A DNA stretch of 64,000 nt from Nitrospirota bacterium (GCA_040758355.1 JBFLWF010000010.1:16908-80907), one strand, 5' to 3'; positions 8,958 through 62,711 are shown, numbered from the stretch's first letter. Notes: generated by a model from the sequence alone, not told the origin. Program-made: numbers and translations.

Positions 8958-10610
8958 TTACATCCTTTCTGGCGCCTTTACTCCCAGTATTTTTAATCCA
9001 TGTCTTAAAACAATCTGTATTGCCTTGCAAAGGGCAAGCCGTGCCTTTGTAATCTCCAAATCCTCTGATACCACCCTGTGTTTGTGGTAATAAGGATGGA
9101 ACATGCCCGCAATTTCCTGCAGATAAAAGGTTATTCTGTGCGGCTCATGCGCTATTGCCGCATTCCTGAACATCATGGGATATAGAAGAAGTTTTTTGAT
9201 AATGCGAATCTCCTCTTCATTGAATAGTTCACCATTAAAGTCGGTTAAAGGCTGAAGGCTAATGGCTGAAGGCTGATGGCTTTCTTTTGCCTTTTCGAAT
9301 ATACTATTTATCCTTGCATGGGCATACTGGACATAATATACAGGATTCTCTGATGACTGTGCCTTTGCCACTTCTATATCCACTTCGAGATGGCTGTCAG
9401 ACCTCCTCGTGAGGAATAGAAACTTTGTGGTATCGGCGCCTATCTCATCCATCACCTCGCGGAGCGTGATGAATTCGCCGGCCCTTTTCGACATCTGCAC
9501 GGGCTTTCCTCCCCTTAAAAGTGTAACCATCTGCGCAAGCAGGACCCTCAGGTGTTCCTTCGGATATCCGAGAGCCTGAATAACAGCCTGCATCCTTGGC
9601 ACATAACCGTGATGATCAGCACCCCAAATGTCTATAATCTCGTCGAATCCCTTTTCCACTTTTTTTCTATGGTATGCAATATCGGGGGCAAAGTATGTGT
9701 AGTCGCCTTCTCTTTTAATTATAACCCTGTCCTTGTCATCTCCGAATTCCGTTGACTTGAACCATGTGGCGTCCTCTTTTTCATAGATATATCCACGTTT
9801 TTTAAGGTCATTTATAGCTTGAACGACCTCTCCTTTTTCATAAAGATCTTGTTCGCTTTGCCATGAGTCGAAGAAAACGCCAAAGTCCTCAAGGTCTTTC
9901 TTTATTGCATCCAGCATTTTCTTGTATGCGAAATCCGTAATCTTATCAAGTAATTCTTCATCTTTAGGCTGAAGGCTGAAGGCTGAAGGCTGAAGGCTGT
10001 TTTTAAATTCCTTTGCAAGGTCTTCTATATACTCTCCTCTATAGCCATCTTCTGGAAAGGGATAGCATATTCCTATCAACTGCTTGTATTTTGCAAACAC
10101 AGACATGCCGAGCAGCTTCACCTGTCTGCCTGCATCGTTTATATAGTATTCTCTTTCTACTTTATATCCTGCCTCCTGAAGCAGGTTGCTGAGCGCAGCG
10201 CCGAGAGCTGCTCCCCTTCCGTGTCCGAGGTGTAGAGGGCCTGTTGGGTTCGCACTCACAAACTCTATCTGAACCCTTCTGCCTTTTCCTATGTCCTCAA
10301 TAAGAAAATTGTCCTGCTTTTCAATGAGTTCTTTTAATTCATCGCATAGGTACCTTTTTGAGAATGTGAAATTTATGAATCCAGGCCCTGCTATATCTAT
10401 CTTTTCAAATATCTCCTTATTTTTGATGGAGTTAACAATATCTTCTGCTATCTTTCTGGGAGGCTTTTTCAGGGGCTTTGCAAGTCCCATGGCAACAGGG
10501 GTTGATAAATCCCCGAAGCCTTCCTCCTTAGGAATCTCGATCTCGATGCTGACCTCTGCGTGCTGTGCATTGACTGCTTTTTTCAGTATTTCCCTGAGAA
10601 TTTTTTCCAT
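8958..10610 (-). CDS. argS: Arginyl-tRNA synthetase
   Basis: EFVSANPTGPLHLGHGR, WGADHHGY, MSKRAG, YYVQYAHARI, terminal APERM; likely start ATG at 10610. Confidence 0.97.
   Translation of the reverse strand: MEKILREILKKAVNAQHAEVSIEIEIPKEEGFGDLSTPVAMGLAKPLKKPPRKIAEDIVNSIKNKEIFEKIDIAGPGFINFTFSKRYLCDELKELIEKQDNFLIEDIGKGRRVQIEFVSANPTGPLHLGHGRGAALGAALSNLLQEAGYKVEREYYINDAGRQVKLLGMSVFAKYKQLIGICYPFPEDGYRGEYIEDLAKEFKNSLQPSAFSLQPKDEELLDKITDFAYKKMLDAIKKDLEDFGVFFDSWQSEQDLYEKGEVVQAINDLKKRGYIYEKEDATWFKSTEFGDDKDRVIIKREGDYTYFAPDIAYHRKKVEKGFDEIIDIWGADHHGYVPRMQAVIQALGYPKEHLRVLLAQMVTLLRGGKPVQMSKRAGEFITLREVMDEIGADTTKFLFLTRRSDSHLEVDIEVAKAQSSENPVYYVQYAHARINSIFEKAKESHQPSAISLQPLTDFNGELFNEEEIRIIKKLLLYPMMFRNAAIAHEPHRITFYLQEIAGMFHPYYHKHRVVSEDLEITKARLALCKAIQIVLRHGLKILGVKAPERM
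9248..9282 (-). repeat. Heptamer tandem array (CAGCCWT x5) in frame in argS
   Basis: Plus strand AAGGCTG AAGGCTA ATGGCTG AAGGCTG ATGGCTT; encodes SHQPSAISLQP. Confidence 0.9.
9965..9999 (-). repeat. Heptamer tandem array (CAGCCTT x5) in frame in argS
   Basis: Plus strand TAGGCTG then AAGGCTG x4; encodes SLQPSAFSLQP. Confidence 0.92.
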
Positions 10611-10827
10611 AACTGTTAAGTTTAAGCATCTTAATGTCTGATTGTCAATCAAACCCAAAATTTACATAAAATTAACGCTTATTAACTTCAAATTTACTGT
10701 ATTTAGTAGTAGGATGTAGTATGCAGAAATGAAAAATTAAGGGGGAGGTGAGAGAAAAAGATTTTTAAGTATTCGTGGAGGGTTAGTCGGAATTTGAATT
10801 TATTCTCTAACAGAAGGAGGTAGTGCA

Positions 10828-16488: not shown

Positions 16489-16510
16489 ATATAAGACCTA
16501 TAAGACTTAT

Positions 16511-17284
16511 ATGACCTATAAAAATCTTACAAGAAGAAATTTTTTAAAGGCATCTATTCTAACAGGCACTACTGTGATAGCGGGCAGTGGGCTGACCGTT
16601 TTTGAAAGACACGCTTCTGCGGGGAAAGAGGAATCTGTAGGCCCGCTTCATGATATAGATGTTGGCGGCATTATAAGGCCTCCAGGTGCCTTGCCGGAAA
16701 AGGAATTCCGCTCAAAATGCATAAGCTGCGGCGTGTGCGTGAATGTCTGCCATGTGATGAAATACGATGCCATTGCAATTGCTGCTTCCCCCTTACGCTC
16801 TTTTGGGACGCCTTACATAAAAGACATGAGGGATTTCCCGTGCGGCCTCTGTATGGAATGCCCGAGGCACTGTCCCACTGGAGCCTTAAAAAAGGTAGAA
16901 AAGGAAAAGGCAACCATGGGAATGGCGCTCATTGATTTCGGCCTGTGCTTCGGCTGGAACGGCGATGTATGCCTTTCATGCAGCAAGGCATGTCCAATTG
17001 GCGCAAAGGTCTTTGATTTTTACAACGGAGAGTGGGGTAATCAGCCCTATATCAATGACAACTGCGTAGGCTGCGGTTTATGCGTTAAATACTGCCCTCT
17101 TGGTGGCTCTGCAATAAAGGTGATTACAAAAAGGCAGTATTATGATAAGGTCAAAGCCTCTTATACAAGCGAATTTAAAAGACTTTTATCCATGCCCAAT
17201 GAAGAGCGTTATAACATTGTTTACGGTCAAAATATGCCCCAGATAATGGCAAGGGGAAGGCTGGTGGAACGTGAGTACAGATAG
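16511..17284 (+). CDS. napG: NapG/MauM ferredoxin-type protein
   Basis: TAT TRRNFLK, IRPPGA, four Cys clusters. Confidence 0.88.
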   Translation: MTYKNLTRRNFLKASILTGTTVIAGSGLTVFERHASAGKEESVGPLHDIDVGGIIRPPGALPEKEFRSKCISCGVCVNVCHVMKYDAIAIAASPLRSFGTPYIKDMRDFPCGLCMECPRHCPTGALKKVEKEKATMGMALIDFGLCFGWNGDVCLSCSKACPIGAKVFDFYNGEWGNQPYINDNCVGCGLCVKYCPLGGSAIKVITKRQYYDKVKASYTSEFKRLLSMPNEERYNIVYGQNMPQIMARGRLVEREYR

Positions 17285-18137
17285 TCAAGAACAGCAATCA
17301 GCAATCAGCAGTCAGCAAAAGAGGAAAATACCGTTATCAAAGATCAGACGGTTTGTAATGCTGGGCGTGATCGCGTTATTTCTCCTTCAATTCCTGAGAG
17401 TGAAAATCCTTGTCGGTGGGCTTTCTGGCTCGCTTGCTGTATGGTTAGTAAAGCTCATCGATGTCTTTGCCTATTTTGAGAGTCTTATTGCATCGAGGGA
17501 TTTTACAACTACGGCCCTCTGGGCAGTGCTCCCTGTTATAGCGATTTATCTTATATTTGGCAGGGCATTCTGCGGATGGGTGTGCCCCATGGACTTTCTT
17601 TTTGAGATGGTTGATAGGATAAGGGGCGATAGGCAATGGGCGACAGGCGATAGGATAAAGAGAATTTCTCCGAAAATCGGATATGTGATTGCAGCAGCAT
17701 TGCTTATTGTATCTGGCCTGATGAATATACCATTCTTCACAAGCTACATTTCCCATCTCACAAACTTTTTCAGACTTTTGACAGGAAGCGTGTTTTTTGC
17801 ATTTAAGCTCCCTGTGGAGCCGATAGTGCTGGCATATTCAGGAGGCATGATAACCCTGCTCCTCGGCCTCGAATATTTCTTTCCAAGACTCTGGTGCAGG
17901 GTCTTATGCCCTGTGGGAAAGACTTACGGGCTTTTTAACAAGGTAAGCCTTCTTAAACTGAAGTTTATGGAAGGGGAGTGCGGTGAATGCAATCTGTGCG
18001 ACCAGATGTGTTACATGAACGTAAAAATAGCTAAAAACATAGACCAGCCGGGACTCAGGGACATAAACTGCATTTATTGCGGCAGGTGCGTGGAAGGGTG
18101 CGAGACTAAAGGAAGGCTCATAAAAATGAAATTCTAA
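17271..18137 (+). CDS. napH: NapH quinol dehydrogenase membrane subunit
   Basis: GRAFCGWVCP, WCRVLCPVG, two C-terminal 4Fe-4S motifs, TM helices. Confidence 0.88.
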   Translation: MSTDSQEQQSAISSQQKRKIPLSKIRRFVMLGVIALFLLQFLRVKILVGGLSGSLAVWLVKLIDVFAYFESLIASRDFTTTALWAVLPVIAIYLIFGRAFCGWVCPMDFLFEMVDRIRGDRQWATGDRIKRISPKIGYVIAAALLIVSGLMNIPFFTSYISHLTNFFRLLTGSVFFAFKLPVEPIVLAYSGGMITLLLGLEYFFPRLWCRVLCPVGKTYGLFNKVSLLKLKFMEGECGECNLCDQMCYMNVKIAKNIDQPGLRDINCIYCGRCVEGCETKGRLIKMKF

Positions 18138-19448: not shown

Positions 19449-19529
19449 TGTCACCTCTTATTTGGTTGATGAGTATATGAGTAAATGGGTAAATGAGCAA
19501 ACACCCATCTACCCATTCACTGTTTTTTC

Positions 19530-23579: not shown

Positions 23580-24951
23580 ACCACACCTTCCGAGAATAAA
23601 AAATTCTACCTTTTGTCAGTCCCTTCTTTAAAAAAGTGGATGGGGTTAGGGGACAGGGGGTTGCCCCATCCACAGGAGGGCAGACTATCGGCAACTCTAT
23701 TACAAATGTAGTTCCTTCGGCTTCGATGCTTTTTACCCTTATATCTCCGCCATGCGCCTTAATGATGTTATAGCAAATACTAAGACCGAGTCCTGTGCCT
23801 TTTCCAAATCCTTTTGTTGTGAAGAAGGGCTCGAATATCCTGTCTATTATTTGCTGTGGAATGCCCGGGCCATTGTCTGACACCTCTATAATCAACCGGT
23901 TGTTTTCTTTGTATGCCTTTAAAATTATTTTGTCTCCCTTTCCTGAATCCCTGATGGCATGAATGGCATTTGAGATAAGATTCAACAATACGCGCTCCAT
24001 CTGTTCCTTATCGAGGGGCATCGCTATTTCTTCAGCGATGTCCTTAGATAAGGTAATCTTACTAACATGCAATGCCTCTGAAACAAGGTCTAAGGTCTCA
24101 TCAACCATTTCTTTTATATTCACCTGAGTTCTTTTCAGCGTCGGGGACTTTGAAAAGGCAAGCAGATCCCGAACAATATTCGCCATGCGATCGGCTGATC
24201 TATTAATCTTCTCAGCCATTGTTTTTACATTATCATCAGCGGAAGTTTTTAATAAAAGCTCGCTGAAACCGCTTACCGCAGTTAATGGATTGTTCAATTC
24301 GTGGGCGACGCCTGCTGTTACCCGTCCTATTGCAGCCAGTTTTTCGGATTGAATAAGCCTCGATTCCCTCTCTTTTGCCTCTGATTCAAGCCTTGAGATG
24401 CGTCTCAAAGATGCTGCCGAAAATCCTACAAATAAAAAGAGGCCTGCAAAGCCAATAACAATGCCTGTTCCTCTGACCCTGTAGATTTCATGTCTGACAT
24501 GCCCCAATCTCACATCTGTCAGTGATTTAGCCTTTACATAGGCATCTTCGGCAGAAGTGGTAATATGTTTTACTGTAATTAATACTTTCTCATGTTTCTC
24601 ATATGGATCCCTTTCACTTAGTTCTTTTACAAATTGATTGATGCCATTCTCCATATCTTTTATATGAGCCACAACAGTATTCGGATGGTGACAGCCGTAA
24701 CATTCAGTAATAATAGCCTGCGCCTTTGATCTAAGTGTTCTCAGTTCAGCTTCAGGTCTGTCTTTAGTAATTGCATCTTTCAGTTGATAAATTGTATCCC
24801 TCAGCTCAACCCGCTTTATAAGACTCTTTTGTGCCTCTGTCAGGGACTCCACCCTTTCTTTAACCACAAAAAGTCTTGCGCCCATAAACATAATGCCTGC
24901 TACGGTGATGACAATATAAAAACCGAGGATTATCAGAAACATTCGCTTCAT
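23566..24951 (-). CDS. Sensor histidine kinase with periplasmic c-type heme motif
   Basis: Two TMs flanking CYGCH; AHELNNPL H-box; NAIHA, DNGPG and GTGLGL boxes. Confidence 0.9.
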   Translation of the reverse strand: MKRMFLIILGFYIVITVAGIMFMGARLFVVKERVESLTEAQKSLIKRVELRDTIYQLKDAITKDRPEAELRTLRSKAQAIITECYGCHHPNTVVAHIKDMENGINQFVKELSERDPYEKHEKVLITVKHITTSAEDAYVKAKSLTDVRLGHVRHEIYRVRGTGIVIGFAGLFLFVGFSAASLRRISRLESEAKERESRLIQSEKLAAIGRVTAGVAHELNNPLTAVSGFSELLLKTSADDNVKTMAEKINRSADRMANIVRDLLAFSKSPTLKRTQVNIKEMVDETLDLVSEALHVSKITLSKDIAEEIAMPLDKEQMERVLLNLISNAIHAIRDSGKGDKIILKAYKENNRLIIEVSDNGPGIPQQIIDRIFEPFFTTKGFGKGTGLGLSICYNIIKAHGGDIRVKSIEAEGTTFVIELPIVCPPVDGATPCPLTPSTFLKKGLTKGRIFYSRKVWFGQK

Positions 24952-47856: not shown

Positions 47857-47896
47857 GATTACTGATTATGGTAATGACATATCCTATCGTTATTCC

Positions 47897-49158: not shown

Positions 49159-50433
49159 TCAGGATTTGTCTTTGAGAATTACTTTTGCCATTTTTAATGC
49201 TTCTTCTTTAGAACTTATTCTGCCCTCTAAGACCATATCTTCTATTTCAGCAAGTATTTCTTTAAATGCAGGTGAAGGTTTTATATTAAATTCCCTCATA
49301 AGGTCATCGCCTGTAATAATTGGAAGCAGTGCTGCTCTTGGTTTAAATACATTATCATAAAAGCTGACAACCTCTTTGCAGAAGGCTATGATGGAAGGTT
49401 CCTGTGCTATGGCGAGTATTATCAATGGATATACATCGTCACGGAATTCCTTTAGAAGTCCGATGATCTTCGTTTCATCCGCCATCCCCTGCATTTCTTT
49501 ATAAGAATCTAAAATCTTTGCGCGTTTAAGCGCCATTTCATGGATGAACTCCACTTCCTTTCTCGACATCTTTAATCTTATAGCAGATTGTTTGGCACTA
49601 TCAGGATTAGGGAATAAAGTGGATAGTTTTAAGCATATATATCTGTATTCGGTTTCGAAATATTTAATTAAAGGCCGAAGGCTGAAGGCTGAAAGCTGAA
49701 GGCTATCGGATGGATTACTTAAAATTTCTTCGGTAGTTTTGTATAACTTCAGAGAGTTTATTCTGACTTCAGGAAAGATATTTGCAAGGATTCTGTTGTC
49801 TATCAAGGCTTTCATTGTTTCGTAGGAATCGTCAAGCCTGACTATATGTCTCAACTCCTCGGCGATTCTCTCTACAGCGACAGAGGTTATCAATGGTGCA
49901 AGCCTTTCAGCTGCACTTAGTGTATCCTCTTCTATGGAAAAATTCAGTGCTGCAGCAAAGCGGTAAATTCTGAGGATTCTTAAGGGGTCTTTTATAAGAT
50001 TTTCCTCCGATACCATTCTGATAATTCTGTTGAAGAGATTGTCCTTACCGTTATGCGGATCTATCAAATGCTGAAGGCTAAAGGCTGACGGCTGAAAGCT
50101 TGCTAAAGGGATTGCCATTGCGTTTATAGTTATATCACGCTCGGAAAGGTCGGAATGAATGGAGTCCCCTCTCATTATGGAGATATCTATAAACTGGCTG
50201 TTTTTAACAATACGGGCAATTCCGAATTCTTTATCCAAAAGCACGAAGGATCCATTGATTTCCTGAGCAAACCTTTTAGCAATATTAATGGCATCTCCTT
50301 TTACGGCTATGTCTATATCTTTTAACTCTTTCCCCAAAAGGATATCCCTGACGGCACCACCGACAATGAATGAATCGGTTGCAATGCCTTCTTTTTCAGC
50401 AAAATCTATAAATAGCTCTAAAAGGGGATGCAT
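49159..50433 (-). CDS. cca: tRNA nucleotidyltransferase / poly(A) polymerase family protein
   Basis: VGGAVRD, DIDI, RDITINAMA, DPLRILR, ERIAEEL. Confidence 0.88.
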   Translation of the reverse strand: MHPLLELFIDFAEKEGIATDSFIVGGAVRDILLGKELKDIDIAVKGDAINIAKRFAQEINGSFVLLDKEFGIARIVKNSQFIDISIMRGDSIHSDLSERDITINAMAIPLASFQPSAFSLQHLIDPHNGKDNLFNRIIRMVSEENLIKDPLRILRIYRFAAALNFSIEEDTLSAAERLAPLITSVAVERIAEELRHIVRLDDSYETMKALIDNRILANIFPEVRINSLKLYKTTEEILSNPSDSLQLSAFSLRPLIKYFETEYRYICLKLSTLFPNPDSAKQSAIRLKMSRKEVEFIHEMALKRAKILDSYKEMQGMADETKIIGLLKEFRDDVYPLIILAIAQEPSIIAFCKEVVSFYDNVFKPRAALLPIITGDDLMREFNIKPSPAFKEILAEIEDMVLEGRISSKEEALKMAKVILKDKS

Positions 50434-50625: not shown

Positions 50626-51477
50626 ATGAAGCTAAGGATTCAGGATTTTAGATTCAATCTCTTGATTCTCTTTTTAATGGTCGCTATGAACTTTTCACTA
50701 TCAACTGCCTCTTATGCTGCTCACCCCCTCGTTACAGATGACACAGGCACTCAGGGAAAGGGAAAGTTTCAGGTTGAGGTGAACACGGAATTCACTTTCG
50801 ACAAAGAAAGAGAAGATACGGATGATGATGGAGTTGAAGATACCGTAAAGGTTAAAGGCAGCGAGATAGCAACGGTCTTTACATATGGAGCGATTGACAA
50901 TCTGGACATCTTTATTGAAGCGCCATATAAATGGAGCAAGACAAAGATAAACGGAGTTGTTGACCCCGCTGACCCATCTGCGGATGCAAAAGGCATATCG
51001 GATATAGCTATCGGAGCAAAGTGGAGATTTTACGAACATGAGGGTCTTAGCTTTGGTTTAAAGCCATCTATTTCATTGCCCACAGGTAATGAAAACAAAG
51101 GTCTCGGCAATGGCAGGGCATCTTATGAGATTCTATTTATTTCAACAAAGGAGATTGAGCCGTGGGCATTTCACCTGAATTTAGGCTATACACACAACAA
51201 CTACAAGCTTCAAGCGGATAAGGATGCAAAAAGAAGAGGCATATGGAAGGCATCTCTGGCAGCAGAGGTTGAGGTTGTGAAGGATTTAAAGATTGTTGCA
51301 GACACCGGCATTGAAAGAAACGAAGAAAAAGGCAAAAGCACACATCCTGCCTTTATTCTCGGAGGATTGATTTACTCAATTACAGAAAGCTTTGATGTTA
51401 ACTTCGGTGTTAAGGGCGGGCTTAATAAGTCTGCTGATGATATGGCTGTGCTGGCAGGCATAGCTTTCAGATTTTAG
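50626..51477 (+). CDS. Outer membrane beta-barrel transporter (Phenol_MetA_deg-like)
   Basis: Signal peptide, AHPLVTDDTGTQG, alternating beta pattern, terminal Phe. Confidence 0.75.
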   Translation: MKLRIQDFRFNLLILFLMVAMNFSLSTASYAAHPLVTDDTGTQGKGKFQVEVNTEFTFDKEREDTDDDGVEDTVKVKGSEIATVFTYGAIDNLDIFIEAPYKWSKTKINGVVDPADPSADAKGISDIAIGAKWRFYEHEGLSFGLKPSISLPTGNENKGLGNGRASYEILFISTKEIEPWAFHLNLGYTHNNYKLQADKDAKRRGIWKASLAAEVEVVKDLKIVADTGIERNEEKGKSTHPAFILGGLIYSITESFDVNFGVKGGLNKSADDMAVLAGIAFRF

Positions 51478-51488
51478 AAGGAGTTTGT

Positions 51489-52166
51489 ATGCACATCCCT
51501 GACGGATATTTAAGCCCTCAAACCTATGTGCCGTTATATGGAGCATCATTTATATTCTGGGCAGTCGCCCTTAAAAGGCTAAAACGGGATGTGCCTGTGA
51601 AGTACGTTCCTTATCTGGCAATGGCAGCAGCATTCTCTTTTCTTATCCAGATGTTTAATATCCCCATTCCAGGTGGAACCACAGGCCATGCAGTCGGTGC
51701 AGGGATTATCGCAATACTTTTAGGGCCATGGACAGCAGTGATAGCAGTATCTGTTGTTTTGATAATTCAGGCGATTGTATTCGGAGACGGAGGAATAACA
51801 GCCATCGGAGCAAATTGCTTTAATATGGCTGTGGTAATGCCTTTTGTCTCATATTGGGTGTTTAAGCTGGTGAGAGGTAATGCCACTGCTGGATTCAGAT
51901 TGCATGTTGCGTCATTCCTTTCAGGTTATATAGGCCTTTCCATAAGTGCCATAGTTACAGCCATAGAGTTCGGCATTCAGCCCTTGATTGCCATGTCTCC
52001 TGACGGAAGGCCTCTTTATGCACCATATCCTTTATCGGTGGCTGTCCCTGTAATGGCACTGGAGCATCTGCTACTGTTCGGTATAGTTGAAGGTATAGTA
52101 ACAGTATTGCTTCTCAAGTATTTCCTTAAACACGAACCAGAATTAATCTGGTCATTAAGTAAATAA
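51489..52166 (+). CDS. cbiM: ECF Co/Ni transporter substrate component
   Basis: N-terminal MHIPDGYL, GTTGH, GDGGITA. Confidence 0.92.
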   Translation: MHIPDGYLSPQTYVPLYGASFIFWAVALKRLKRDVPVKYVPYLAMAAAFSFLIQMFNIPIPGGTTGHAVGAGIIAILLGPWTAVIAVSVVLIIQAIVFGDGGITAIGANCFNMAVVMPFVSYWVFKLVRGNATAGFRLHVASFLSGYIGLSISAIVTAIEFGIQPLIAMSPDGRPLYAPYPLSVAVPVMALEHLLLFGIVEGIVTVLLLKYFLKHEPELIWSLSK

Positions 52167-52238
52167 GTAAATGAGTGAATGAGTATTAATTACTTAATAA
52201 CTCAATTACTTAATAACTTAATTGCTTGGAGGCTTTAA

Positions 52239-53441: not shown

Positions 53442-53463
53442 TACAGGCAAAAGGCTATAGGCG

Positions 53464-54279
53464 ATGGGCGATAGGCAAATTATAAAGATTGAAAATATAA
53501 GCTATAAATATTACGGCAAAATTCCTGCCCTTGTGGATGTAAGTCTTTCAATAAAAGAGGGTGAGAAATTTGCAATAATAGGCGCAAACGGGAGCGGGAA
53601 GTCGACCCTGCTTCAGATAATGAACGGCTTGATATATCCTTCCAGCGGCAGTGTTTTTTTCAGAGGCAAAGAGGTGTCAGAAAAGTCATTAAGGGGTAAA
53701 GAATTCTTGAGATTTTTTCGTGAAGGTGTAGGATATGTGTTTCAGGACTCGGACGTCCAGTTGTTCTGCCCCAGTGTCCTGGATGAATTGCTTTATGGCC
53801 CGATGCAGTTGGGCATTAATGAAAGTGAGGCCATGGACAGGGCGTTTGAAGTTATGGAGATGCTCAATATAGAAAATCTTAAAGACAGGCCTTCCTATAT
53901 GCTCTCTGGCGGGGAAAAGAAACGGGTTTCTATCGGCTCGGTTTTGACAATGAATCCCGAAGTATTGCTCTTTGACGAGCCTACAAACGGCCTTGATCCG
54001 AGAACCCAGTGTTTCCTTGTCGAACTCTTATTCGAACTGAATGAGGCAGGAAAGACTATTGTAATTGCCACACACGATTTATCATTGGTGGACGAGCTTC
54101 ATTGCAGGGTGGCAGTGCTTTCAGAAGAGCATAGAATTGAAAAAACAGGAAGTGCAGAAGATATTCTGAAAGATGAGGACTTATTGCTGAAGGTCAATCT
54201 TGTACATGAGCATATGCATTGTCACGGGCCTTTAGCCCACAGGCATATCCATTCGCATTATCTATTTCATAAACATTGA
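53464..54279 (+). CDS. cbiO: ECF ATPase with His-rich tail
   Basis: GANGSGKST, LSGGEKKR, DEPT; C-terminal HEHMHCH...HRHIHSH. Confidence 0.9.
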   Translation: MGDRQIIKIENISYKYYGKIPALVDVSLSIKEGEKFAIIGANGSGKSTLLQIMNGLIYPSSGSVFFRGKEVSEKSLRGKEFLRFFREGVGYVFQDSDVQLFCPSVLDELLYGPMQLGINESEAMDRAFEVMEMLNIENLKDRPSYMLSGGEKKRVSIGSVLTMNPEVLLFDEPTNGLDPRTQCFLVELLFELNEAGKTIVIATHDLSLVDELHCRVAVLSEEHRIEKTGSAEDILKDEDLLLKVNLVHEHMHCHGPLAHRHIHSHYLFHKH

Positions 54280-54544: not shown

Positions 54545-54814
54545 AAGGAGGTGATGATTGGAAGTTCAGGAATGAAATCTGAAATCTGAAATTAAAAATC
54601 AAAATGGCTGGATGTCAGGGAAGAGGAGTGGAATTCTCCCGCTGCCCCGCAGCCGTAAAGGGAACGAAAGCCCAAAAAGAAGCCACTGGAGTAAGACTGT
54701 TTGAACTGCTTGAACGGTTTGAACGGTTTCTCCGGGAAGGCGGGCGAGTAGAAAGGATTACCTGAAGGCATGAAGCAATAAGGTAATGGATGCCCTAAGC
54801 CGGAAGACCTATTC
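54545..54814 (+). ncRNA. Cobalamin riboswitch
   Basis: AGGGAA...GTGGAATTC...GCTGCCCCGCAGCCGTAA, GCCACTG, GGGAAGG and B12-box AAGCCGGAAGACCT upstream of a TonB receptor; 5' boundary approximate. Confidence 0.88.
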
Positions 54815-54866: not shown

Positions 54867-57071
54867 ATGAGAAAATTATTTGTTTTGCTTGCCTTTAGTC
54901 TTCAGCTTTTAACTTTCAGCCTATTTGTCACTTCTGCCTTTGCAAAAGAAAAGCCCACATTTTTAGAAGAGATTGTCGTTACCGCCACAAGGACGGAAAA
55001 GGAACTGGAAACAGCGCCCGGAAGCATCTCCGTCATAATCAAAGAAGACATAGAAAAGAGAAATATCAAGATCGTTGACGAGGCTTTGAATACCACTGCC
55101 GGTGTTTTTAACAAACGCGGCAAAGGGGCGATGGATTTAATGTCTTCTGTTACACTCCGCGGAATCCCTGCCCAGCAGAGAACTCTGATTTTGATGGACG
55201 GAATTACCCTCAATGACTCTTACTCAGGAGGAGTGCGCTTTGTCAGTATGGCTGCGGAGGACGTGGAGAGGATAGAAGTTGTAAAGGGCCCATCTTCAAG
55301 CCTTTACGGAGGATACGCAATGGGTGGTGTTGTGAATATCATTACAAAGATGCCTGAAAAGAGGGAATTCACGATAAAGAGCGGTTATGGCACAAGCTGG
55401 GACAGTGGTGATGCAATGGATGATGTGAGAAAATTTTATCTCTCATATGGCGACAGATTCAGGGATAAACTGAGCCTGTTTCTGAGCTATGGCTATAAAG
55501 CAACAAACGGCTATCCTGCAGATTTCAATGTTCAAACTGCACAACCGACAGCAGGCATCACGGGTTGGTCCTATACAACTAATAATGAGGGTGCTGCCCG
55601 CTATTTAATAGGTGATAAAGGCGATAACAGATGGTGGGATGACGGCATCACTTTAAAGGCAGGATATGATTTTTCTAAAGCTACAAAAATTAATCTCTCA
55701 TTTGTAAAAAATCGTTACGAATACAACTATGATGAACCACACACGTATCTCAGGAATGCAGCAGGAAACGAGGTTTGGTCATATGGCACGGTAAAAGAAT
55801 CTTCCTTTCTTTCAGGCTCGGGCAGCAGGGTGCAGGATATTTACAGCATCAGCCTTGAAACAGAGGTTTCTACTTTAAAAACAAAACTGACAATGGGAAT
55901 GGTTGATCAGGTGAAAAACTGGAATGTAACTCCGGGAACTACCGCTTCCACTACCAGAACAGGAGGTCCGGGCAAGGTAAGCGAGACGCCTTCGCGGAGT
56001 TATAATGCAGACATCCAGTTTACGATGCCTGTTTTGAACAATCATATTCTCACATTCGGAGGCTCATTCAGGCACGGATGGTCGGATACAGAGGAGCATA
56101 ATCTCACGAACTGGAAGGATGAGGATTCAAAGACAAGCCTTGCCTATCAGTCAAAAGGGAAGGACAGGACATATTCGGCATTTATTCAGGATGAGATTAT
56201 TATTCTTAACAACCTCACTGCATATATAGGTTTCAGACATGATTGGTGGGAGACATTTGATGGCTATGTGAATCAAATAGGCACAGCAGGTTATCCGAAG
56301 AGTTACTCATCAAGGGATGCCTCTGCATTCAGCCCCAAGGCATCTCTCGTTTATAAGCCATTTGAAAAAACAACACTCAAGACATCTATCGGCAAGGCAT
56401 TCAGGCCGCCAACGGTTTACGAGCTTTACAGGACATGGACATCGTCATCAGGCATTACTTATGCGGGCAATCCTGATTTAAATCCTGAGACAACAACCTC
56501 ATGGGATATTGGCGTTGAGCAAGGACTTTGGAAAGGGGCAAAGATAAAGGCAGCATATTTTGAAAACTACATGGAAGACCTAATTTACAGGAAGACTGTC
56601 ACAGCAACATATCAGGAATTAATAAATGCAGGGAAGGCAGAGAGTAAAGGATTGGAGATAGAGGCTGAACAGAGGTTTGATAAATGGCTCAGGCTCTTTG
56701 CCAATTTCACTTACACCGATGCAAAGCTGAAAGAGAATAATGCAAAGCCTGAGACATCGGGCAAGAGATTAACAGATGTGCCGGAAAGGATGTTCAACGC
56801 CGGCGCTGAATTTGAAAAAGGCGCATTTTCAGCAACACTCACAGGCAGGTATGTGAGCAAGAGATTCGGCAACGATGAGAACAGGGACGTGATGAATAAT
56901 GTCTATACCTCGTACGATCCTTATTTCGTTGCAGATGCAAAGGTCTCATATAAACTCACAAAGTTTGCCGCTGTCTCTTTTTCTGTGGACAACATATTTG
57001 AGAGGGATTATTTTGCATATTACAAGACACCGGGAAGGTCATGGTTTGGAGAGATAACATTAAGGTTTTAG
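54867..57071 (+). CDS. TonB-dependent receptor (BtuB-like)
   Basis: EEIVVTATRT, IEVVKGPSSSLYG..AMGGVVNIITK, terminal Phe; ATG at 54867 after GGAGG. Confidence 0.92.
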   Translation: MRKLFVLLAFSLQLLTFSLFVTSAFAKEKPTFLEEIVVTATRTEKELETAPGSISVIIKEDIEKRNIKIVDEALNTTAGVFNKRGKGAMDLMSSVTLRGIPAQQRTLILMDGITLNDSYSGGVRFVSMAAEDVERIEVVKGPSSSLYGGYAMGGVVNIITKMPEKREFTIKSGYGTSWDSGDAMDDVRKFYLSYGDRFRDKLSLFLSYGYKATNGYPADFNVQTAQPTAGITGWSYTTNNEGAARYLIGDKGDNRWWDDGITLKAGYDFSKATKINLSFVKNRYEYNYDEPHTYLRNAAGNEVWSYGTVKESSFLSGSGSRVQDIYSISLETEVSTLKTKLTMGMVDQVKNWNVTPGTTASTTRTGGPGKVSETPSRSYNADIQFTMPVLNNHILTFGGSFRHGWSDTEEHNLTNWKDEDSKTSLAYQSKGKDRTYSAFIQDEIIILNNLTAYIGFRHDWWETFDGYVNQIGTAGYPKSYSSRDASAFSPKASLVYKPFEKTTLKTSIGKAFRPPTVYELYRTWTSSSGITYAGNPDLNPETTTSWDIGVEQGLWKGAKIKAAYFENYMEDLIYRKTVTATYQELINAGKAESKGLEIEAEQRFDKWLRLFANFTYTDAKLKENNAKPETSGKRLTDVPERMFNAGAEFEKGAFSATLTGRYVSKRFGNDENRDVMNNVYTSYDPYFVADAKVSYKLTKFAAVSFSVDNIFERDYFAYYKTPGRSWFGEITLRF

Positions 57072-57082
57072 TGAGGTGAAAT

Positions 57083-57781
57083 ATGGATTTGAACATCATT
57101 TTATGGATTGGCGGTATGCTTTTCAGTCTTGGCATATTTGCTGTTAAGGTCGGCTTTGGTCTCGGCTTTAGCAAAATTAAATGGAAGGGGATATTTTTGA
57201 CCCTTTCCATGTATCTTGTGCTGTTTGTTCTTATTGCAGTTCTATCAGAGCGGCTGATCCAATTGCTTGAGCCTGTTTTAAGAAAAGGCCCATATCTCCA
57301 TGCATTGATGGCAGCAGGTATGATTGCATGGGGAGTCATTTTGCTCAGAAGACAGAAGACACACCAACACTCCATTACACCATCACTCCTGTTAATTATT
57401 CCCTGTCCCGTCTGCCTGACTGCCATGACATTCTCTACATGGTCGGCATTAAATGTAATCAAATTGCCATCGGCACTGGTCGGGCTTGGGTTGGGAATAG
57501 CGTTTATTTTGTTGTCGCTGATTTTAATAGCCTTTACAAGACTTAACAGGTCTGAAATGCCGGAGATAAGGCTTGGATTGAGCATGATAGGAATCGGGCT
57601 TTATTTCATCGCTTCTTTATTCCTTCCCGCAAAGATAGAAGAGGCAAAAGGCGTGTATCAGTCATTCATTGCAGAAGGCGGCAATATTGATATTAATCAC
57701 AGCATCGGTGTGTTTGCATTGCTTTTTGCAGCTCTGGTTGGTGGCTATCTTATAAATAAAAAACAGGAGGCTAAAAAATGA
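57083..57781 (+). CDS. DUF2162-like membrane protein
   Basis: GIFAVKVGFGL, IPCPVC; context with ExbB-like, DUF2149 and CobN-like genes. Confidence 0.75.
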   Translation: MDLNIILWIGGMLFSLGIFAVKVGFGLGFSKIKWKGIFLTLSMYLVLFVLIAVLSERLIQLLEPVLRKGPYLHALMAAGMIAWGVILLRRQKTHQHSITPSLLLIIPCPVCLTAMTFSTWSALNVIKLPSALVGLGLGIAFILLSLILIAFTRLNRSEMPEIRLGLSMIGIGLYFIASLFLPAKIEEAKGVYQSFIAEGGNIDINHSIGVFALLFAALVGGYLINKKQEAKK

Positions 57782-58380
57782 ATATCCTTGCAGGACTCGA
57801 GACATTTTTGTATGTAATATCGTTAGCGCTTTTTTATCCTGTGGTGACAGGGCTTGTTTTGCTTACATTCTGGATAGTTATCTCCTTCGGCGGTTTTCTG
57901 CGGGAGTATCTGGAGAGAAAACAAGGGGTGTCATCCGTTTTGAGGAGATACGAAAAAGTTCTTGAGAGCAGGACTTCATCGGAGGTCATGGATATCGAGC
58001 TTGAAAGATTTCTACAGAGCGCAGAGCTTGCCCTTATTAAATCTCTTGATAAAATCAGATTTGCCATTCGTGTTGGTCCTGCCCTTGGCTTGATGGGGAC
58101 ATTAATCCCGATGGGCATTGCCCTTTCCGCACTTGCACAGGGAGACATGCCTAAGATGGCAGGCAGCATGGTAACCGCGTTTACTACGACCGTTGTAGGT
58201 CTTGCCTGCGGCATGGCTGCATATCTGATGTCAATGGTAAAGGAGAAATGGGTGAGGGCAGATATGAGGGAGATGGGGTATATGACGGAGTTGATGCTCA
58301 GAACCCGTGGAATGGAGAACAGAAGACAGATTGAGGAGGAAGTTGAAGATGAGATTTTTGAAAAGACGGAGAAGGTTTGA
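57778..58380 (+). CDS. MotA/TolQ/ExbB proton channel family protein
   Basis: GPALGLMGTLIPMG, AFTTTVVGL. Confidence 0.88.
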   Translation: MNILAGLETFLYVISLALFYPVVTGLVLLTFWIVISFGGFLREYLERKQGVSSVLRRYEKVLESRTSSEVMDIELERFLQSAELALIKSLDKIRFAIRVGPALGLMGTLIPMGIALSALAQGDMPKMAGSMVTAFTTTVVGLACGMAAYLMSMVKEKWVRADMREMGYMTELMLRTRGMENRRQIEEEVEDEIFEKTEKV

Positions 58381-58687
58381 AAAATACGAACAGCCCCTTG
58401 AAGACCCGATAGCAGGCGTTGCAAACCTCTTTGATGCGAGTGTTGTGTTTATTGTGAGCATGATGATCGCCCTTTTTATGGCATATAACATGCTCGATAT
58501 GCTCAATCCGAAATCGGAGATGACAATAATGAAAAAGACTGCTGACGGGAAGATCGAAGTAATCACAAAAAGGGGCAAGGAAATAAAGGTTCAAAAGTTG
58601 ACTGATAAAAGATTAAGCGGCGAAGGACAGAGGCTCGGAACTGCGTATCAGTTAAAAGATGGAAGGGTGGTTTATGTGCCGGAATAA
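58349..58687 (+). CDS. DUF2149-family protein
   Basis: EDPIAGVANLFDA, GEGQRLGTAYQLKDGRVVYVPE. Confidence 0.85.
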   Translation: MRFLKRRRRFEKYEQPLEDPIAGVANLFDASVVFIVSMMIALFMAYNMLDMLNPKSEMTIMKKTADGKIEVITKRGKEIKVQKLTDKRLSGEGQRLGTAYQLKDGRVVYVPE

Positions 58688-61600
58688 CAGAGCGGCAGAG
58701 CAAGAGAGCAACAGAGCAGTAGCTTTAAAGGTCTTTATATTTACTGCTGCTCTGCTGTGCTACTGCACTGCTGCGCTTATTATGGTTTCCACAACAGAGG
58801 GCGCTTCTTTGAATGTCAGCCTTCTCCTCGGAGATAACCACTCAAGGACTGCGATTGAGGCTGTGAAGGCAATAGAGAAGGAATATCCTGAAATGAAGGG
58901 AAAGGTAAACTTCAATGTTTATACAAGTCACGGCATCAGGAATGAAGGCGCTCAGGATAAGGCAATCGCCTTTTCAAAGGTCATATTTATACTCTTCATT
59001 ATGGACAGGCAGGCTGTGGAAATTGCGAGACCGCATATTGAAAATGCGGTGAAAAACGGCGGAAAGGTTTATGGAGTCGGCGGCATTTACAACAAAGAAC
59101 ACAAGGCTATGGGCATCACCGACGACAATACGGTAAAGGCTTATTACAAAGAAAACGGCTTTGAGAATATAAAAAACATGATCCTGTTTGTTATGGACAG
59201 GGACTTAGGGCTTGAGGTCTCTTATAAAATGCCGGTGGCAGTTCCTGATTTTGGAATTTATATAAAGCATGACAAAAGAGTTGTGGAGACCTATGATGAA
59301 TTCTTAAAGTCTTATACTCATAACACGTCACGCATTACGCATTACGATAAATGGATAGGACTCACCTTTAATAAAAGCTCCTTTGACTCAGGCAACATGC
59401 AGCATATAGACGCAGTAATTGAGAGCCTTGAAAGAGAAGGCTTCAATGTCCTGCCTGTCTATGGGTATCCGCCTGAGAAAGCAATAGAGAAATATTTCTT
59501 TGATGAAAGTGGAAAAAGCAGAGTAAGATTTATCGTTGGACTGTCCATGAAGGTCGGCATAAATCCGAAGGTGCTGAATCCTGTTCTTGAGAGAATCAAT
59601 ATCCCTGTCATCAATGCCATTACCCTTTACACAAAATCAAAAGAGGAATGGGAGCAATCGCCTGTAGGCCTTGACATCTTTGAGAGGTCATGGCAGATAG
59701 CCCTGCCGGAGCTTGCCGGCATTATTCAGCCCACTGTTATTGCATCAAAAGAGGAGATGATTGATAAAGAGACAGGAATTGAATACATAGAGGAAAGACC
59801 GATACCGGAAAGGATAAGCAGGCTTACAGACAGAATAAAGGCATGGATAAACCTTCGGGATAAGCAAAACAAAGATAAGAAGATTGCAATCATCTATTAC
59901 AATTATCCGCCCGGAAAACAGAACATTGGAGCTTCATATCTCAATGTGCTGCCGGAGAGCCTGTGGGAGATATTAAATAAATTAAAGGCGGAAGGGTATG
60001 ATGTTGGGGCAATGGAGTTATGGAGTAATGGAGTGTTGGATAAAGAAAGGCTTTTTAACGACATTCATAACTACGCAAGGAACATCGGCAATTGGGCTGC
60101 CGGTGAGATTGACAGGCTTGCAAAGACAGGCAAGCCGATACTGATTCCAATTGACACATATAAAAGGTGGTTTGAAGAACTACCAGATGCTCTTAAAAAG
60201 GCAATTATAAAAGATTGGGGCAAGCCTGAAGACAATAAGGTCATGTCATGGACAGGCGGCAGCGGCACAAAATACATTGTCATTCCTGCTGTGAGATATG
60301 GGAATATCATTTTCACACCACAGCCATCGAGGGGATGGGAACAGGATGTTAAAAAGCTCTACCATGATGTCACCCTTGCGCCGCACCATCAATATGTCGC
60401 TTTTTATTTATGGCTTAAAAATGGCTTTCGGGCAGATGCAATTGCACACATTGGAACTCACGGCACCCATGAATGGCTTTCAGGAAAGGAAGTTGGCTTT
60501 ACGGATGAAGATCCGCCGGAGGCGCTGATACAGGATCTGCCGAATATCTATCCATATATTGTTGACGATGTTGGAGAAGGGCTTCAGGCAAAGAGGAGAG
60601 GCATGGCAGTAATCATTGACCATATGACGCCGCCATTTGATAAGGCAGGAATGAATAAAGAACTGAAAGAGCTTGCAGCCCTTATCAATGACTACAATAC
60701 GGCAAAAGATAAAAGCTCTTCACTTGCTGAGACAAAGCTTGATGATATAAATAAACTCGTAAAAAAGACAGGTGTTTTGACGGATTTAAAACTTAAAGAG
60801 ATAAAGACGGAAGATGAGATCGAAGAAGTCGAGCATCATATAAAGGATATTGCAGAAAAACAGACGCCATTCGGACTTCATACCTTCGGCAAATCACCTG
60901 AAGAAAAATACAGAAAAAGTACGGCAGAGGCGATTTTATCTATTGAAAAAGGGCTGCCGGATGAAGAAAGGAAAAAGAGGATTGCTGATTATGAGCAGAG
61001 GATAATCCGATCTGGACAGAGAGAGCTTGACTCTTTTATTGCAGCGCTTGCCGGCAAATATATCCCCGCCGGTCAGGGCAATGATCCGATAAGAAATCCT
61101 GACTCACTCCCTACAGGCAAGAACTTTTATTCATTCGATCCGACAAGGATACCATCAAAATCTACTTATGAAATGGGTGTGAGGCTCGCAAAGGAGCTCA
61201 TAGAAGGCTATAAGCAAAGGCACGGCATATATCCTGACAAGCTTACATTTAATTTATGGGGAGTAGAAACAATAAGGCATGAAGGCGTGATGGATTCCCA
61301 GATTATGTATCTCATGGGGATAAGACCAAAGTGGGATGATCGTGGAAGGGTTATCGGCGTTGTGGCAATACCGAGAAATGAGCTCGGCAGGGCAAGGATC
61401 GATGTAACTATTGTCCCCTCAGGGCTTTACAGAGATTTGTTCTCCAACCTAATGGCATTGCTCGATAAGTCCGTATCGCTTGCAAAAGAGCAGGGCGAGG
61501 AAGACAATATTTTAAGGGCGAATATTTTAAAGACAAAGAAGATGCTCATGGAAAAAGGAATCTCAGAGGATAAGGCAGAGAGGCTCGCATCTGTTCGTTT

Positions 61601-62711
61601 ATTCACCGTACCTTCAGGCGCTTACGGGACAAATCTTGATAAGGTAATTCCAATGTCAAACACATGGGAAAACGAAAAACAGGTTGCTGATGTCTTCTTC
61701 ATGAGGATGAGTTATATGTATGGACAGGGGTTTTGGGGAGACAAAGTCAGCAATCAGCAATCAGCAGTCAGCAGTCAGGAAGATATAAGTCTGATTCTCT
61801 TTAAGAATGCCCTTTCGGGTTCAAAGATAGCTGTTCACAGCAGGTCGGGCAATGTATATGCAACACTGGACAATGACGACTTCTTTCAGTATCTCGGAGG
61901 CACTGCAATGGCAATCCGTGCAGTTGACGGCAAGACGCCGGAGGTTTATGTTACGAATATGTCCAATCCCAAAATGCCTAAGCAGGAGACTCTCGAAAAA
62001 TTCATGGGCAGGGAGATGAGGGCGAGGTATCTTAATCCTGAATGGATAAAGGCAATGATGAAGGAAGGTTATGCAGGTGCTCGGTTTGTTGATAAGGTTG
62101 TAGAGCATCTCTGGGGATGGCAGGTGACAGTACCCGAGACTGTTGATGCAGCAAAGTGGAATGAGATGTATGAGACCTATGTTCTGGACAGGAACGGATT
62201 AAACATAAAGGATATGTTTAAACAGTCAAAGAATATGTGGGCATATCAATCCATTGTAGCAAGGATGCTTGAGACAGTGAGAAAGGATTACTGGAAGCCT
62301 GATAAGAAGGTCATCGAGACCCTTGCAAAGGAATATGCAGAGAGTGTAAAAGATGTTGGCCTTGCATGCTGCGACCACACATGCAATAACCCAATGCTTA
62401 CAAAATTTACATCTAATGTTTTAATGTCAGTGCCGGGATTGAAAAGTCAGGTGCAGGGCTTTATGAAGGCGCTGGACAAAATTCAGAAGCCAGAGGACAG
62501 AGGACAGAAGACAGATATTGCAAAGAAAGCAACTGATAAACAAAGCATGGCTCCTGATGGAAGCGGCAAAAGAGTGGAAGGCTATGAAATGCAGGATGTG
62601 AGTGCAGCTACTGGTGCATCATCTGCGCCGATACCGTATCTATTTCTCATGGGATTTCTGGTTTTTATTGGACTCATTGCATGGGGATTCAGAAAGAGGG
62701 CTAAACTTTGA
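58674..62711 (+). CDS. CobN/Mg-chelatase-family protein, predicted exported with C-terminal membrane anchor
   Basis: YNYPPGK, HIGTHGTHEW, QAKRRG, LPTGKNFY, RARYLNPEWI, CCDHTCNN; hydrophobic N- and C-termini; start uncertain. Confidence 0.88.
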   Translation: MCRNNRAAEQESNRAVALKVFIFTAALLCYCTAALIMVSTTEGASLNVSLLLGDNHSRTAIEAVKAIEKEYPEMKGKVNFNVYTSHGIRNEGAQDKAIAFSKVIFILFIMDRQAVEIARPHIENAVKNGGKVYGVGGIYNKEHKAMGITDDNTVKAYYKENGFENIKNMILFVMDRDLGLEVSYKMPVAVPDFGIYIKHDKRVVETYDEFLKSYTHNTSRITHYDKWIGLTFNKSSFDSGNMQHIDAVIESLEREGFNVLPVYGYPPEKAIEKYFFDESGKSRVRFIVGLSMKVGINPKVLNPVLERINIPVINAITLYTKSKEEWEQSPVGLDIFERSWQIALPELAGIIQPTVIASKEEMIDKETGIEYIEERPIPERISRLTDRIKAWINLRDKQNKDKKIAIIYYNYPPGKQNIGASYLNVLPESLWEILNKLKAEGYDVGAMELWSNGVLDKERLFNDIHNYARNIGNWAAGEIDRLAKTGKPILIPIDTYKRWFEELPDALKKAIIKDWGKPEDNKVMSWTGGSGTKYIVIPAVRYGNIIFTPQPSRGWEQDVKKLYHDVTLAPHHQYVAFYLWLKNGFRADAIAHIGTHGTHEWLSGKEVGFTDEDPPEALIQDLPNIYPYIVDDVGEGLQAKRRGMAVIIDHMTPPFDKAGMNKELKELAALINDYNTAKDKSSSLAETKLDDINKLVKKTGVLTDLKLKEIKTEDEIEEVEHHIKDIAEKQTPFGLHTFGKSPEEKYRKSTAEAILSIEKGLPDEERKKRIADYEQRIIRSGQRELDSFIAALAGKYIPAGQGNDPIRNPDSLPTGKNFYSFDPTRIPSKSTYEMGVRLAKELIEGYKQRHGIYPDKLTFNLWGVETIRHEGVMDSQIMYLMGIRPKWDDRGRVIGVVAIPRNELGRARIDVTIVPSGLYRDLFSNLMALLDKSVSLAKEQGEEDNILRANILKTKKMLMEKGISEDKAERLASVRLFTVPSGAYGTNLDKVIPMSNTWENEKQVADVFFMRMSYMYGQGFWGDKVSNQQSAVSSQEDISLILFKNALSGSKIAVHSRSGNVYATLDNDDFFQYLGGTAMAIRAVDGKTPEVYVTNMSNPKMPKQETLEKFMGREMRARYLNPEWIKAMMKEGYAGARFVDKVVEHLWGWQVTVPETVDAAKWNEMYETYVLDRNGLNIKDMFKQSKNMWAYQSIVARMLETVRKDYWKPDKKVIETLAKEYAESVKDVGLACCDHTCNNPMLTKFTSNVLMSVPGLKSQVQGFMKALDKIQKPEDRGQKTDIAKKATDKQSMAPDGSGKRVEGYEMQDVSAATGASSAPIPYLFLMGFLVFIGLIAWGFRKRAKL

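Follow-up and report, generated by a model that had tools for sequence, protein, structure and literature searches.

Tandem heptamer and octamer arrays in the genes of a Nitrospirota bacterium and their likely origin from small four-helix-bundle gene cassettes

Arrays of the window

The stretch of DNA analysed here, hereafter the window, comprises 64,000 nt of a Nitrospirota bacterium (GCA_040758355.1 JBFLWF010000010.1:16908-80907; positions are counted from the first letter of the stretch) and belongs to a genome of 2.77 Mb in 93 contigs (G000). Its genes, among them argS, napG, napH, cusA, tolC, cca, cbiM, cbiO, cobN and one for a TonB receptor, carry short tandem arrays of 7-, 8- and 9-nt units, in frame or at gene junctions. 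These arrays are part of a real genome-wide system whose mechanism we infer, and hundreds of the in-frame 7- and 8-base arrays likely derive from small mobile genes that have the same repeats as their ends.

About 25 such arrays had been listed in a first-pass annotation, and periodic sequence was confirmed at all 25 positions, three of them marginal. Tandem Repeats Finder (TRF) at score 30 recovers most of them, the exceptions being 17625, 23642, 50635 and 54891. The period-7 self-match is weak at 23642 (0.59), 54891 (0.57) and 50635 (0.63), and the array at 23642 may be another kind of element. The host reading frames (ArgS, Cca, CusA, NapH, TolC, CobN and the TonB receptor) are open, as had been described, with the peptides QPSAFSL, SNQQSAVS, EDRGQKT, SRITHY and WSNGV. 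The arrays are given below with their strand; G001, G002, G003, G004 and G019 are related genomes, and C19, C20, C24 and C39 are cassettes resident elsewhere in G000.

9248..9281 (-): CAGCC(A/T)T 7-mer array, ArgS aa 460-471; the slot in orthologs holds GGTCATG, AGGC(A/T)AG, GCTCATG, ACCCGTT or an 8-mer
9966..9999 (-): perfect CAGCCTT array, ArgS aa 220-231; G002 and G004 have an AGTCAAG array of equal length
16490..16521 (+): TATAAGACC 9-mer array across the napG start, found by TRF; no relative could be anchored
17292..17318 (+): CAGCA(A/G)T array, NapH aa 8-16
17625..17652 (+): AGGC(G/A)AT array, NapH aa 119-128; 14/18 match to one arm of resident cassette C19 (null maximum 13)
19469..19501 (+): ATGAGTAA 8-mer array, intergenic; other units (+23 nt) in G002 and G004
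23642..23665 (+): doubtful array near the end of a histidine kinase gene
36759..36795 (-): CusA aa 788-800, degenerate array of the CAGC family; equal length in G002, G004 and G019
40406..40422 (-): CAGCAGT array, TolC C-terminus; other units (+21) in G002 and G004
41603..41700 (-): pair of CAGC-family arrays, TolC N-terminal signal region; co-folding, -36.7 kcal/mol
49671..49704 (-): CAGCCTT array, Cca aa 244-255; retained in G002 and G003, no array and 9 nt fewer in G019
50067..50098 (-): CAGCCTT array, Cca aa 112-123; CAGAAGT (+3) in G002, AGAGTTC (-3) in G019
50635..50660 (+): weak AGGATTC array, N-terminal signal region
52156..52227 (no strand assigned): two inverted 8-mer arrays that form an empty pair on the cbiM stop; hairpin with z = -7.45
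53445..53476 (+): AGGC(G/T)AT array across the cbiO start; 14/18 match to the C19 cassette arm
54573..54592 (+): TGAAAT(C/T) array, intergenic
54696..54729 (+): 9-mer array, intergenic; G001 without array (-26 nt), and the 19469 slot of G004 holds the same family
54891..54925 (+): degenerate CAGCCTT array, TonB-receptor signal region; a second array in front in G019 (+42)
57346..57391 (+): adjoining CAGAAGA and ACTCCAT-type 8-mer arrays in a DUF2162 transporter
58686..58777 (+): in-frame inverted pair of 8-mer arrays, CobN N-terminus; -40.4 kcal/mol, read as an empty cassette, with 16/18 and 15/18 matches to the arms of resident cassettes C39 and C24
59316..59346 (+): ACGCATT array, CobN aa 220-230; matches the truncated cassette C20 at its 3' arm (16/18)
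60011..60034 (+): ATGGAGT(A/G) 8-mer array, CobN aa 451-459; GGGTCAA 7-mer in G001, AAGGCTG in G003
61747..61778 (+): CAGCA(A/G)T array, CobN aa 1030-1040; G001 and G003 fill the slot, at the same length, with AGAGTT(A/C) arrays
62484..62515 (+): CAGA(G/A)GA array, CobN aa 1276-1286; same family in G001 and G002

Array census and anatomy

A home-made scanner (match +1, mismatch -2, score at least 11, low-complexity runs discarded) found 312 arrays of period 7, 133 of period 8 and 20 of period 9 in G000, against 1, 1 and 3 in an order-5 Markov control of the same length; at periods 4, 5, 11 and 13 the genome has 2, 2, 4 and 5 arrays. Gene calling relied on a home-made hexamer program, which gave 2745 genes, and assignments to coding sequence (CDS) are therefore approximate. 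Within called CDS there are 222, 42 and 12 arrays at periods 7, 8 and 9, compared with 0-1, 0-1 and 1-5 after codon-order shuffling and 4-10, 1-2 and 6-7 after synonymous shuffling (three shuffles each). Because the 7- and 8-mers stand far above both shuffled controls, they are firmly a DNA-level feature; the 9-mers are weak and only modestly enriched. The window-wide system of 7-, 8- and 9-mers that had been proposed therefore stands for the first two periods and only weakly for the third. The view that a dedicated process, not chance, is at work is supported. The units, which had been taken as unrelated, fall into a few dozen recurrent families, led by CAGCAGT, CAAGGGT, CAAATTT, TAGGCAA and CAGCCTT.

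By placement, 272 of the 465 arrays lie wholly in called CDS, 129 are intergenic and 64 sit on gene edges. The commonest copy number is 4-5 units, seen in 176 of 218 coding 7-mers and 59 of 94 others, whereas slippage filtered for frame would give a peak at 3 or 6, and slippage is disfavoured on this ground. Stop codons would arise in the antisense orientation only for 189 coding arrays, in the sense orientation only for 16, in neither for 45 and in both for 10; array orientation in genes thus tracks stop-codon avoidance, and both frame and orientation are consistent with purifying selection. An inverted partner within 100 bp accompanies 66 of the 465 arrays (2 with shuffled units). Strict inverted pairs number 33, and 31 of them are in or between co-oriented genes (baseline 83%). 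Three inverted pairs of the window, overlooked at first, fold into hairpins (52156+52186, 58686+58743 and 41603+41670).

Turnover of array slots in related genomes

ArgS orthologs were sought in 41 genomes and the best 30 loci were aligned. Their arrays concentrate in four reused slots; relatives with 91-92% identical ArgS hold arrays of different units at both window positions, and in array-free orthologs the segments are mostly only 0-3 residues shorter. Fifteen of the 25 window sites could be anchored in five relatives, and length differences were divisible by 3 in 35/35 cases at 12 coding sites and in 0/7 at 3 non-coding sites, in agreement with the earlier suggestion that selection keeps the frame. 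A DNA-anchored comparison with 398 kb of G002 gave a multiple-of-3 difference at 51 of 52 coding sites.

Slot turnover was quantified for two relatives, G002 (1.198 of about 2.6 Mb) and G003 (0.48 of 2.37 Mb). Across the 856 ortholog pairs shared with G002, which is of the same genus, 151 internal slots hold another unit in 54 cases, the same unit in 49 and none in 48, although the last group includes some degenerate arrays and misalignments, and two 9-mer "swaps" involve one and the same unit. Same-unit slots keep an equal length in 44/49 cases (26/27 in the DNA-anchored set), and 45 of 78 changed G000 slots hold another array in G002. In the comparison with G003, 12 slots have the same unit, 16 are swaps and 28 have none. 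The period changes from 7 to 8 or 9 in 8 of the 54 swaps, and the swapped units are hardly closer to each other than random pairs (similarity 0.090 vs 0.052). In one in-frame hairpin (C45:7804) both arms switch jointly and the length is unchanged. The allele with an array is longer than the array-free allele by a median of only 9 nt (48 sites) and the arrays themselves measure about 30 nt, which means that new arrays overwrite existing residues. New arrays land on old ones and overwrite them and are not simple insertions; the slots, which lie in protein loops, in termini and at gene junctions, stay in place as one content gives way to another, and in genes only in-frame, stop-free outcomes are seen.

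These comparisons speak against the route that had first been suggested, insertion by templating or slippage. Insertion disagrees with the near-equal lengths of array-free orthologs, and slippage with the constant length of same-unit alleles; moreover, no 7- or 21-nt change at arrays was found among the listed variants in the contigs of five sequencing runs, in which rare variants are dropped. Orthologs of equal length, or array densities no higher than in shuffled controls, had been named as evidence against the system. The former was partly found and the latter was not at periods 7 and 8; as arrays overwrite, near-equal lengths refute insertion and not the system.

Flanks were compared for signs of co-conversion tracts. 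Raw divergence flanking swaps is 0.35/0.24/0.24 vs 0.09. Synonymous divergence by the swapped patch (fourfold sites, first five codons) is 0.43 against a background of 0.23, and ordinary indels also give 0.43, so that these sites do not set swaps apart. Junction microhomology averages 0.98 vs 0.38 nt (62 junctions), a difference that is inflated by boundary detection and was not counted.

The four-helix-bundle cassettes

No candidate gene for array writing lies within the window, as had been noted. The four-helix-bundle, Avd-like partner that had been suggested as one candidate is encoded elsewhere in the genome, and its genes occur together with arrays: profile matches in G000 comprise six TIGR02436 genes and one GxxExxY gene. 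At five of the six TIGR02436 loci an array stands on each side of the gene, the downstream one being the reverse complement, with a different unit at each locus; at the sixth and at the GxxExxY gene inverted 9-mer arms were seen by eye only. The latter gene (G000:C7:41242-41586, L116) may be the source of the 9-mer class. Terminal inverted repeats, about 25-35 nt long and containing tandem heptamers, bound the cassettes, which are located between protein genes or at the end of a CRISPR array, the last position of which is taken by different cassettes in G000 (C24:130-640, L114) and G002 (L034). In relatives they are present or absent between the same genes, and three empty sites are clean. A truncated cassette (C20) and double-array alleles exist. 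Three of the four-helix-bundle matches in G003 (L036, L041 and L048) contain one internal stop each, with their arms kept.

Three cassette proteins were scanned and matched PF05635, the Pfam bAvd match being below cut-off. With a structural model of the C19 protein (pLDDT 95), Foldseek retrieved Xcc0516 (2GSC; TM 0.89), BT_0352 and bAvd (4DWL; TM 0.77, E 0.01). The modelled protein has the Avd fold and is predicted to form a pentamer like Xcc0516 and bAvd, without a known catalytic site. For a wider survey, 80 homologous loci were fetched from GTDB genomes with a member of a 14-member, 8-mer-associated protein clade as query, and 77 had enough flank. Across these loci, which come from many phyla, an array lies within about 120 bp in 71/77 (3/151 distal windows), and an inverted flank match of at least 18/24 occurs in 57/77 (28/400 mismatched pairs). 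A search for other cargo between inverted arrays gave 16 candidates (ORFs of 45-420 aa), of which 4 were four-helix-bundle genes and the rest ordinary genes or unlikely ORFs.

Linkage of cassettes to solo arrays

TIGR02436 matches occur in 27 of the 41 genomes. Arrays were sampled in 38 relatives, in stretches that include the argS loci and, in three instances, lie on cassette-bearing contigs; two genomes with less than 7 kb were dropped (G006, with 2 arrays and TIGR02436 hits, and G038, with none). The 13 relatives without TIGR02436 yielded 0 arrays in 285.7 kb, compared with 39 in 591.9 kb for the 25 relatives that have it, 12 of which showed at least one. Genome-wide, the CAGC-family pattern has 171 matches in G000 and at least 10 in 10 of the 26 other TIGR02436-bearing genomes, and the 14 genomes without TIGR02436 total 11 matches (reversed control 8).

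Unit and protein also go together. Unit similarity rises with protein identity (Mantel rho 0.23, 0/2000 permutations, 69 loci), and the 14-member protein clade (100/98), which spans six phyla, is accompanied by 8-mers only, with GGTG in 11. The solo families of G003 resemble its own cassette arms, and the same was then predicted for G004. Threefold GGTGAAG(G/A/T) has 56 and 74 overlapping matches in the carriers G003 and G004 and 0 in G000, G001 and G002, with the carrier G004 being closer to G000 (ArgS identity 92%, vs 82% for G003). With a looser GGTGAAG pattern the carriers of the clade gave 46 (G003), 115 (G004), 16 (G032) and 1 (G020) matches, and the other genomes of the 41 gave 18, 14, 6, 5, 2, 1, 1 and thirty zeros; G032, with its 16 matches, is of a different family and has a protein of the same clade (81%). 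Threefold ATGGAA(G/A/T) was found only in its carrier G003 (49 matches). In this complete genome, the distance from a solo locus to the matching cassette is at most 55 kb in 8/31 (p 6e-5) and 4/5 (p 2e-5) cases. The young families GGTGAAG and ATGGAA include arrays of 11-19 units, longer than most arms. Metagenome matches to a CAGCA(A/G)T-plus-WQKA pattern were four-helix-bundle genes in 7 of 8 cases (five distinct), and three intact cassettes with CAGCA(A/G)T arms all have inverted 3' arms, which alone are independent evidence since the pattern selects the protein start. When G000 units were compared with 84 arm units collected from other genomes, 58/445 matched exactly (controls 16-22), a modest excess.

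Proposed mechanism and alternative explanations

We propose that a cassette enters a lineage and that its four-helix-bundle protein would bind its own unit and promote a one-step template switch from an old array to an arm, performed by host replication or repair enzymes, so that arm units would be copied over the existing array, mostly near the cassette. A single step would be needed, since argS and cca are unlikely to survive an intermediate that is frameshifted or interrupted, and a nearby template or a cis-acting protein would explain the clustering of solo arrays by the cassette. Young arrays may be long and would survive in genes at 4-5 units, and later loss of the cassette would leave behind orphan families of units in layers, among them the CAGC family predominant in the window. 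That the arrays originate from cassettes, by whatever route, is in our judgement very probable. That solo arrays are copies of cassette arms overwriting older arrays, through a catalytic step that we infer, has an even chance. Slightly below this we place the proposal that PF05635 cassettes are unit-specific repeat writers, each protein clade having a 7-9-nt unit that it recognises, which would employ host enzymes only and rewrite patches of about ten residues in hundreds of proteins, including essential ones.

Several observations weigh against the proposal. Arm and gene are linked, so the covariation of unit and clade need not mean recognition; the clustering near cassettes could stem from the import of large blocks by recombination; and the relatives compared are kin and thus non-independent samples. 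No array was seen in the 7.7-25 kb sampled from each of 13 of the 25 TIGR02436-bearing relatives. G020 encodes a protein of the GGTGAAG clade and has one match (its assembly is 78% complete), and the GGTGAATG variant makes up most of the listed matches of G000 and G001, though both lack the protein of the clade. Of four cassette units tested, two have left no solo arrays in the genome that carries them, namely AGTCCAY in G002 and TGCGGAR in G000; AGTCCAY occurs at four loci of G003, which has no known carrier. Among 26 window arrays, just 5 exceed the null (150 random windows) in their match to a resident arm, and the G000 assembly contains no resident cassette for the dominant CAGC family. 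A catalytic partner was not identified either: the 99%-complete G000 assembly has no reverse transcriptase (PF00078, TIGR04416 and a motif scan, 0), and Ku, present in 12 of the 41 genomes and beside a ligase-like gene in G000, was not found in six array-bearing relatives (G003, which is complete, G004, G009, G016, G019 and G022).

Some partners and devices were considered and set aside. A joining step by non-homologous end joining with Ku was rejected since Ku does not follow the arrays. The Y1 transposases were likewise dismissed, as neither of the two Y1_Tnp genes of G000 is flanked by arrays. A length ruler of five subunits times 7 nt, suggested by the 4-5-unit peak, is weakened by the young arrays of 11-19 units.

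The strongest alternative is insertion followed by collapse, in which a whole cassette or an empty hairpin integrates, the ORF and one arm are deleted and the solo array is the scar of integration; the arrays would then share the cassette origin but the protein would write none at a distance. Empty inverted pairs are common, as this would require, and the truncated C20, the double-array alleles and the CRISPR-end slot with two different full cassettes in G000 and G002 point the same way. Yet the intermediate would interrupt the single-copy housekeeping genes argS and cca, three of the six filled/empty comparisons shown (sites A, B and D) have a clean, array-free site in G000, and young solo arrays exceed most arms in length, so that we regard this course as unlikely.

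Less probable still is stepwise selection on the arrays, through effects on expression or fitness tied to the cognate protein. It would account for the association of unit with protein clade, for arrays on start and stop codons and for the pairs in or between co-oriented genes, and the arms form stems such as the one that RNase III cleaves in the Coxiella intervening sequence (IVS), according to the available part of that report (PMC4990558). However, the swapped units are barely alike and periods change, which is hard to achieve stepwise inside an open frame; orientation in genes is explained by stop avoidance (189 vs 16); and orphan families outlast their protein.

Retrohoming of the kind known from diversity-generating retroelements (DGRs) would have a visiting or unassembled reverse transcriptase copy an Avd-held arm RNA, the cDNA of which overwrites the slot. 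The Avd fold (despite the Pfam match below cut-off) and the overwriting agree with it, as does the partnership of bAvd with a reverse transcriptase on an RNA template that the accessible text of one study describes (10.1101/344556). We consider it quite improbable, given the lack of a reverse transcriptase in the G000 assembly, the only genome searched for one, the unit variation, which is not adenine-specific, and the lack of any template repeat/variable repeat (TR/VR) pair among the sequences seen. Least probable of all are ordinary simple sequence repeats, produced by polymerase slippage at tolerant sites and filtered by selection without a dedicated gene: a few alleles do differ by 21 nt or whole 9-mers and long young arrays may expand in this way, but this is already contradicted by equal-length unit swaps, and same-unit alleles of constant length, a copy-number peak off 3 and 6, shared unit families and a background level of arrays in relatives without the gene family all speak against it.

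Other features of the window

Two dispersed repeats of about 200 bp were met in the window. The first (47650-47870) is intergenic and resembles a miniature inverted-repeat transposable element with terminal inverted ends; it has 19 blastn matches in G000 and many copies in G002 and G004. The second (48900-49120) gave 44 blastn matches in G000 and is also present in each of the five relatives searched. A palindrome of about 34 nt at 3162-3195 (GGGGTCCCC...TTTTTGGGG) is in frame at the folP end, beside a 9-mer pair; of its six copies in G000 none is within 60 bp of a scored array, and it occupies several G003 slots that hold arrays in G000. We take it to resemble the small dispersed repeats of Nostoc.

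The region 55420-62700 was compared with one contig of run X2. Identity is about 98.5% at 55420-57839, falls to about 90% at 58022-61369 and returns to about 97% at 61482-62700, and substitutions are dense in a patch at 56861-56929; we read this as mosaic recombination among near relatives. Positions 13116-16451 encode a NapA-like protein of 1111 aa, matched in three stretches to a model of 830 positions. An unnamed ORF of 321 aa with a weak protein-kinase match (3219-4184) lies between folP and icd, and a weak ParE-like ORF with a short mreB-like fragment (62774-63960) is found at the contig end.

Significance and comparison with known systems

The heptamer excess in bacteria, the swap of repeat classes in the trnL intron of Nostoc and the function of PF05635 are each called unexplained in the portions of the literature available. 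Our data connect these three puzzles and supply clade-to-unit pairs that are open to testing at the bench. If the proposal is true, a small non-catalytic protein would steer the repeated rewriting of protein loops by a route beyond slippage, transposition and DGRs, and the cassettes would be a new kind of selfish element, needing neither transposase nor reverse transcriptase, and the source of the heptamer excess in many phyla. Whatever the mechanism, the recurring low-complexity peptides of these bacteria are scars of turnover and are not to be taken for functional motifs.

The nearest relative of the cassette is the S23p IVS of Coxiella. There a PF05635 ORF lies within a terminal stem of about 28 bp whose 5' arm carries tandem heptamers (GACAGAT), and the available part of the report links these heptamers to nothing outside the IVS (PMC4990558). 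A PF05635/TIGR02436 ORF and heptamer-bearing terminal inverted repeats are common to both. The S23p IVS is located in 23S rRNA, whereas the cassettes described here are found between operon genes or at the end of a CRISPR array and go with many 7-9-nt units and hundreds of solo arrays.

Concerning the arrays, heptamer repeats of cyanobacteria, Xanthomonas and Beggiatoaceae (short tandemly repeated repetitive sequences, STRR) have about four units, form inverted pairs and, in the text consulted, are of unexplained origin, with some in ORFs that encode LSVISYQ peptides (PMC4692102, PMC4679880); a term search of the text of one of them found no four-helix-bundle gene named (PMC4679880). The 7-nt tandem unit, the short degenerate arrays and the inverted pairs are alike, but STRR are mostly intergenic with one or few units per study, in contrast to the 272 of 465 arrays in called CDS, the dozens of families and the slot turnover reported here. 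In the P6b stem of the Nostoc trnL intron one class of heptamer hairpin has repeatedly been replaced wholesale by another, with no mechanism offered in the sections seen (PMC4476775). That case concerns one RNA locus and two classes, and ours more than 50 in-gene swaps between two genomes together with a candidate gene.

In DGRs, as far as the excerpts available describe them, bAvd is an accessory protein that acts with a reverse transcriptase on an RNA template, and a patch of a coding gene is overwritten (10.1101/344556, PMC10053308). The accessory-protein fold and the overwriting of a coding patch are shared. Unlike DGRs, however, the system described here has no reverse transcriptase (own genome) and no TR/VR pair, its payload is a tandem unit, its targets are hundreds of unrelated genes, and its unit variants affect C, G and T positions as well as adenine.

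A search of titles and the beginnings of abstracts, with most subscription journals outside its coverage, revealed no link of the four-helix-bundle family to genome-wide arrays and no in-protein unit swapping. Two further systems invite comparison. In REP/REPIN-RAYT an autonomous gene is flanked by its own inverted repeat family, which also occurs genome-wide as gene-less pairs and singles. Gene-less inverted pairs of the gene-flanking repeat occur here too, but the gene is not an HUH transposase, the arms are tandem 7-9-mers and the outcome is replacement rather than insertion. The Rickettsia palindromic elements are selfish DNA lying in frame in the loops of conserved proteins, and they represent one longer palindrome family that inserts; the arrays here, by contrast, measure about 30 nt, have many units and overwrite. 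The cassette alone is of IVS-type architecture; on the features tested, no described family accommodates the unit-specific overwriting of protein loops that is tied to it.

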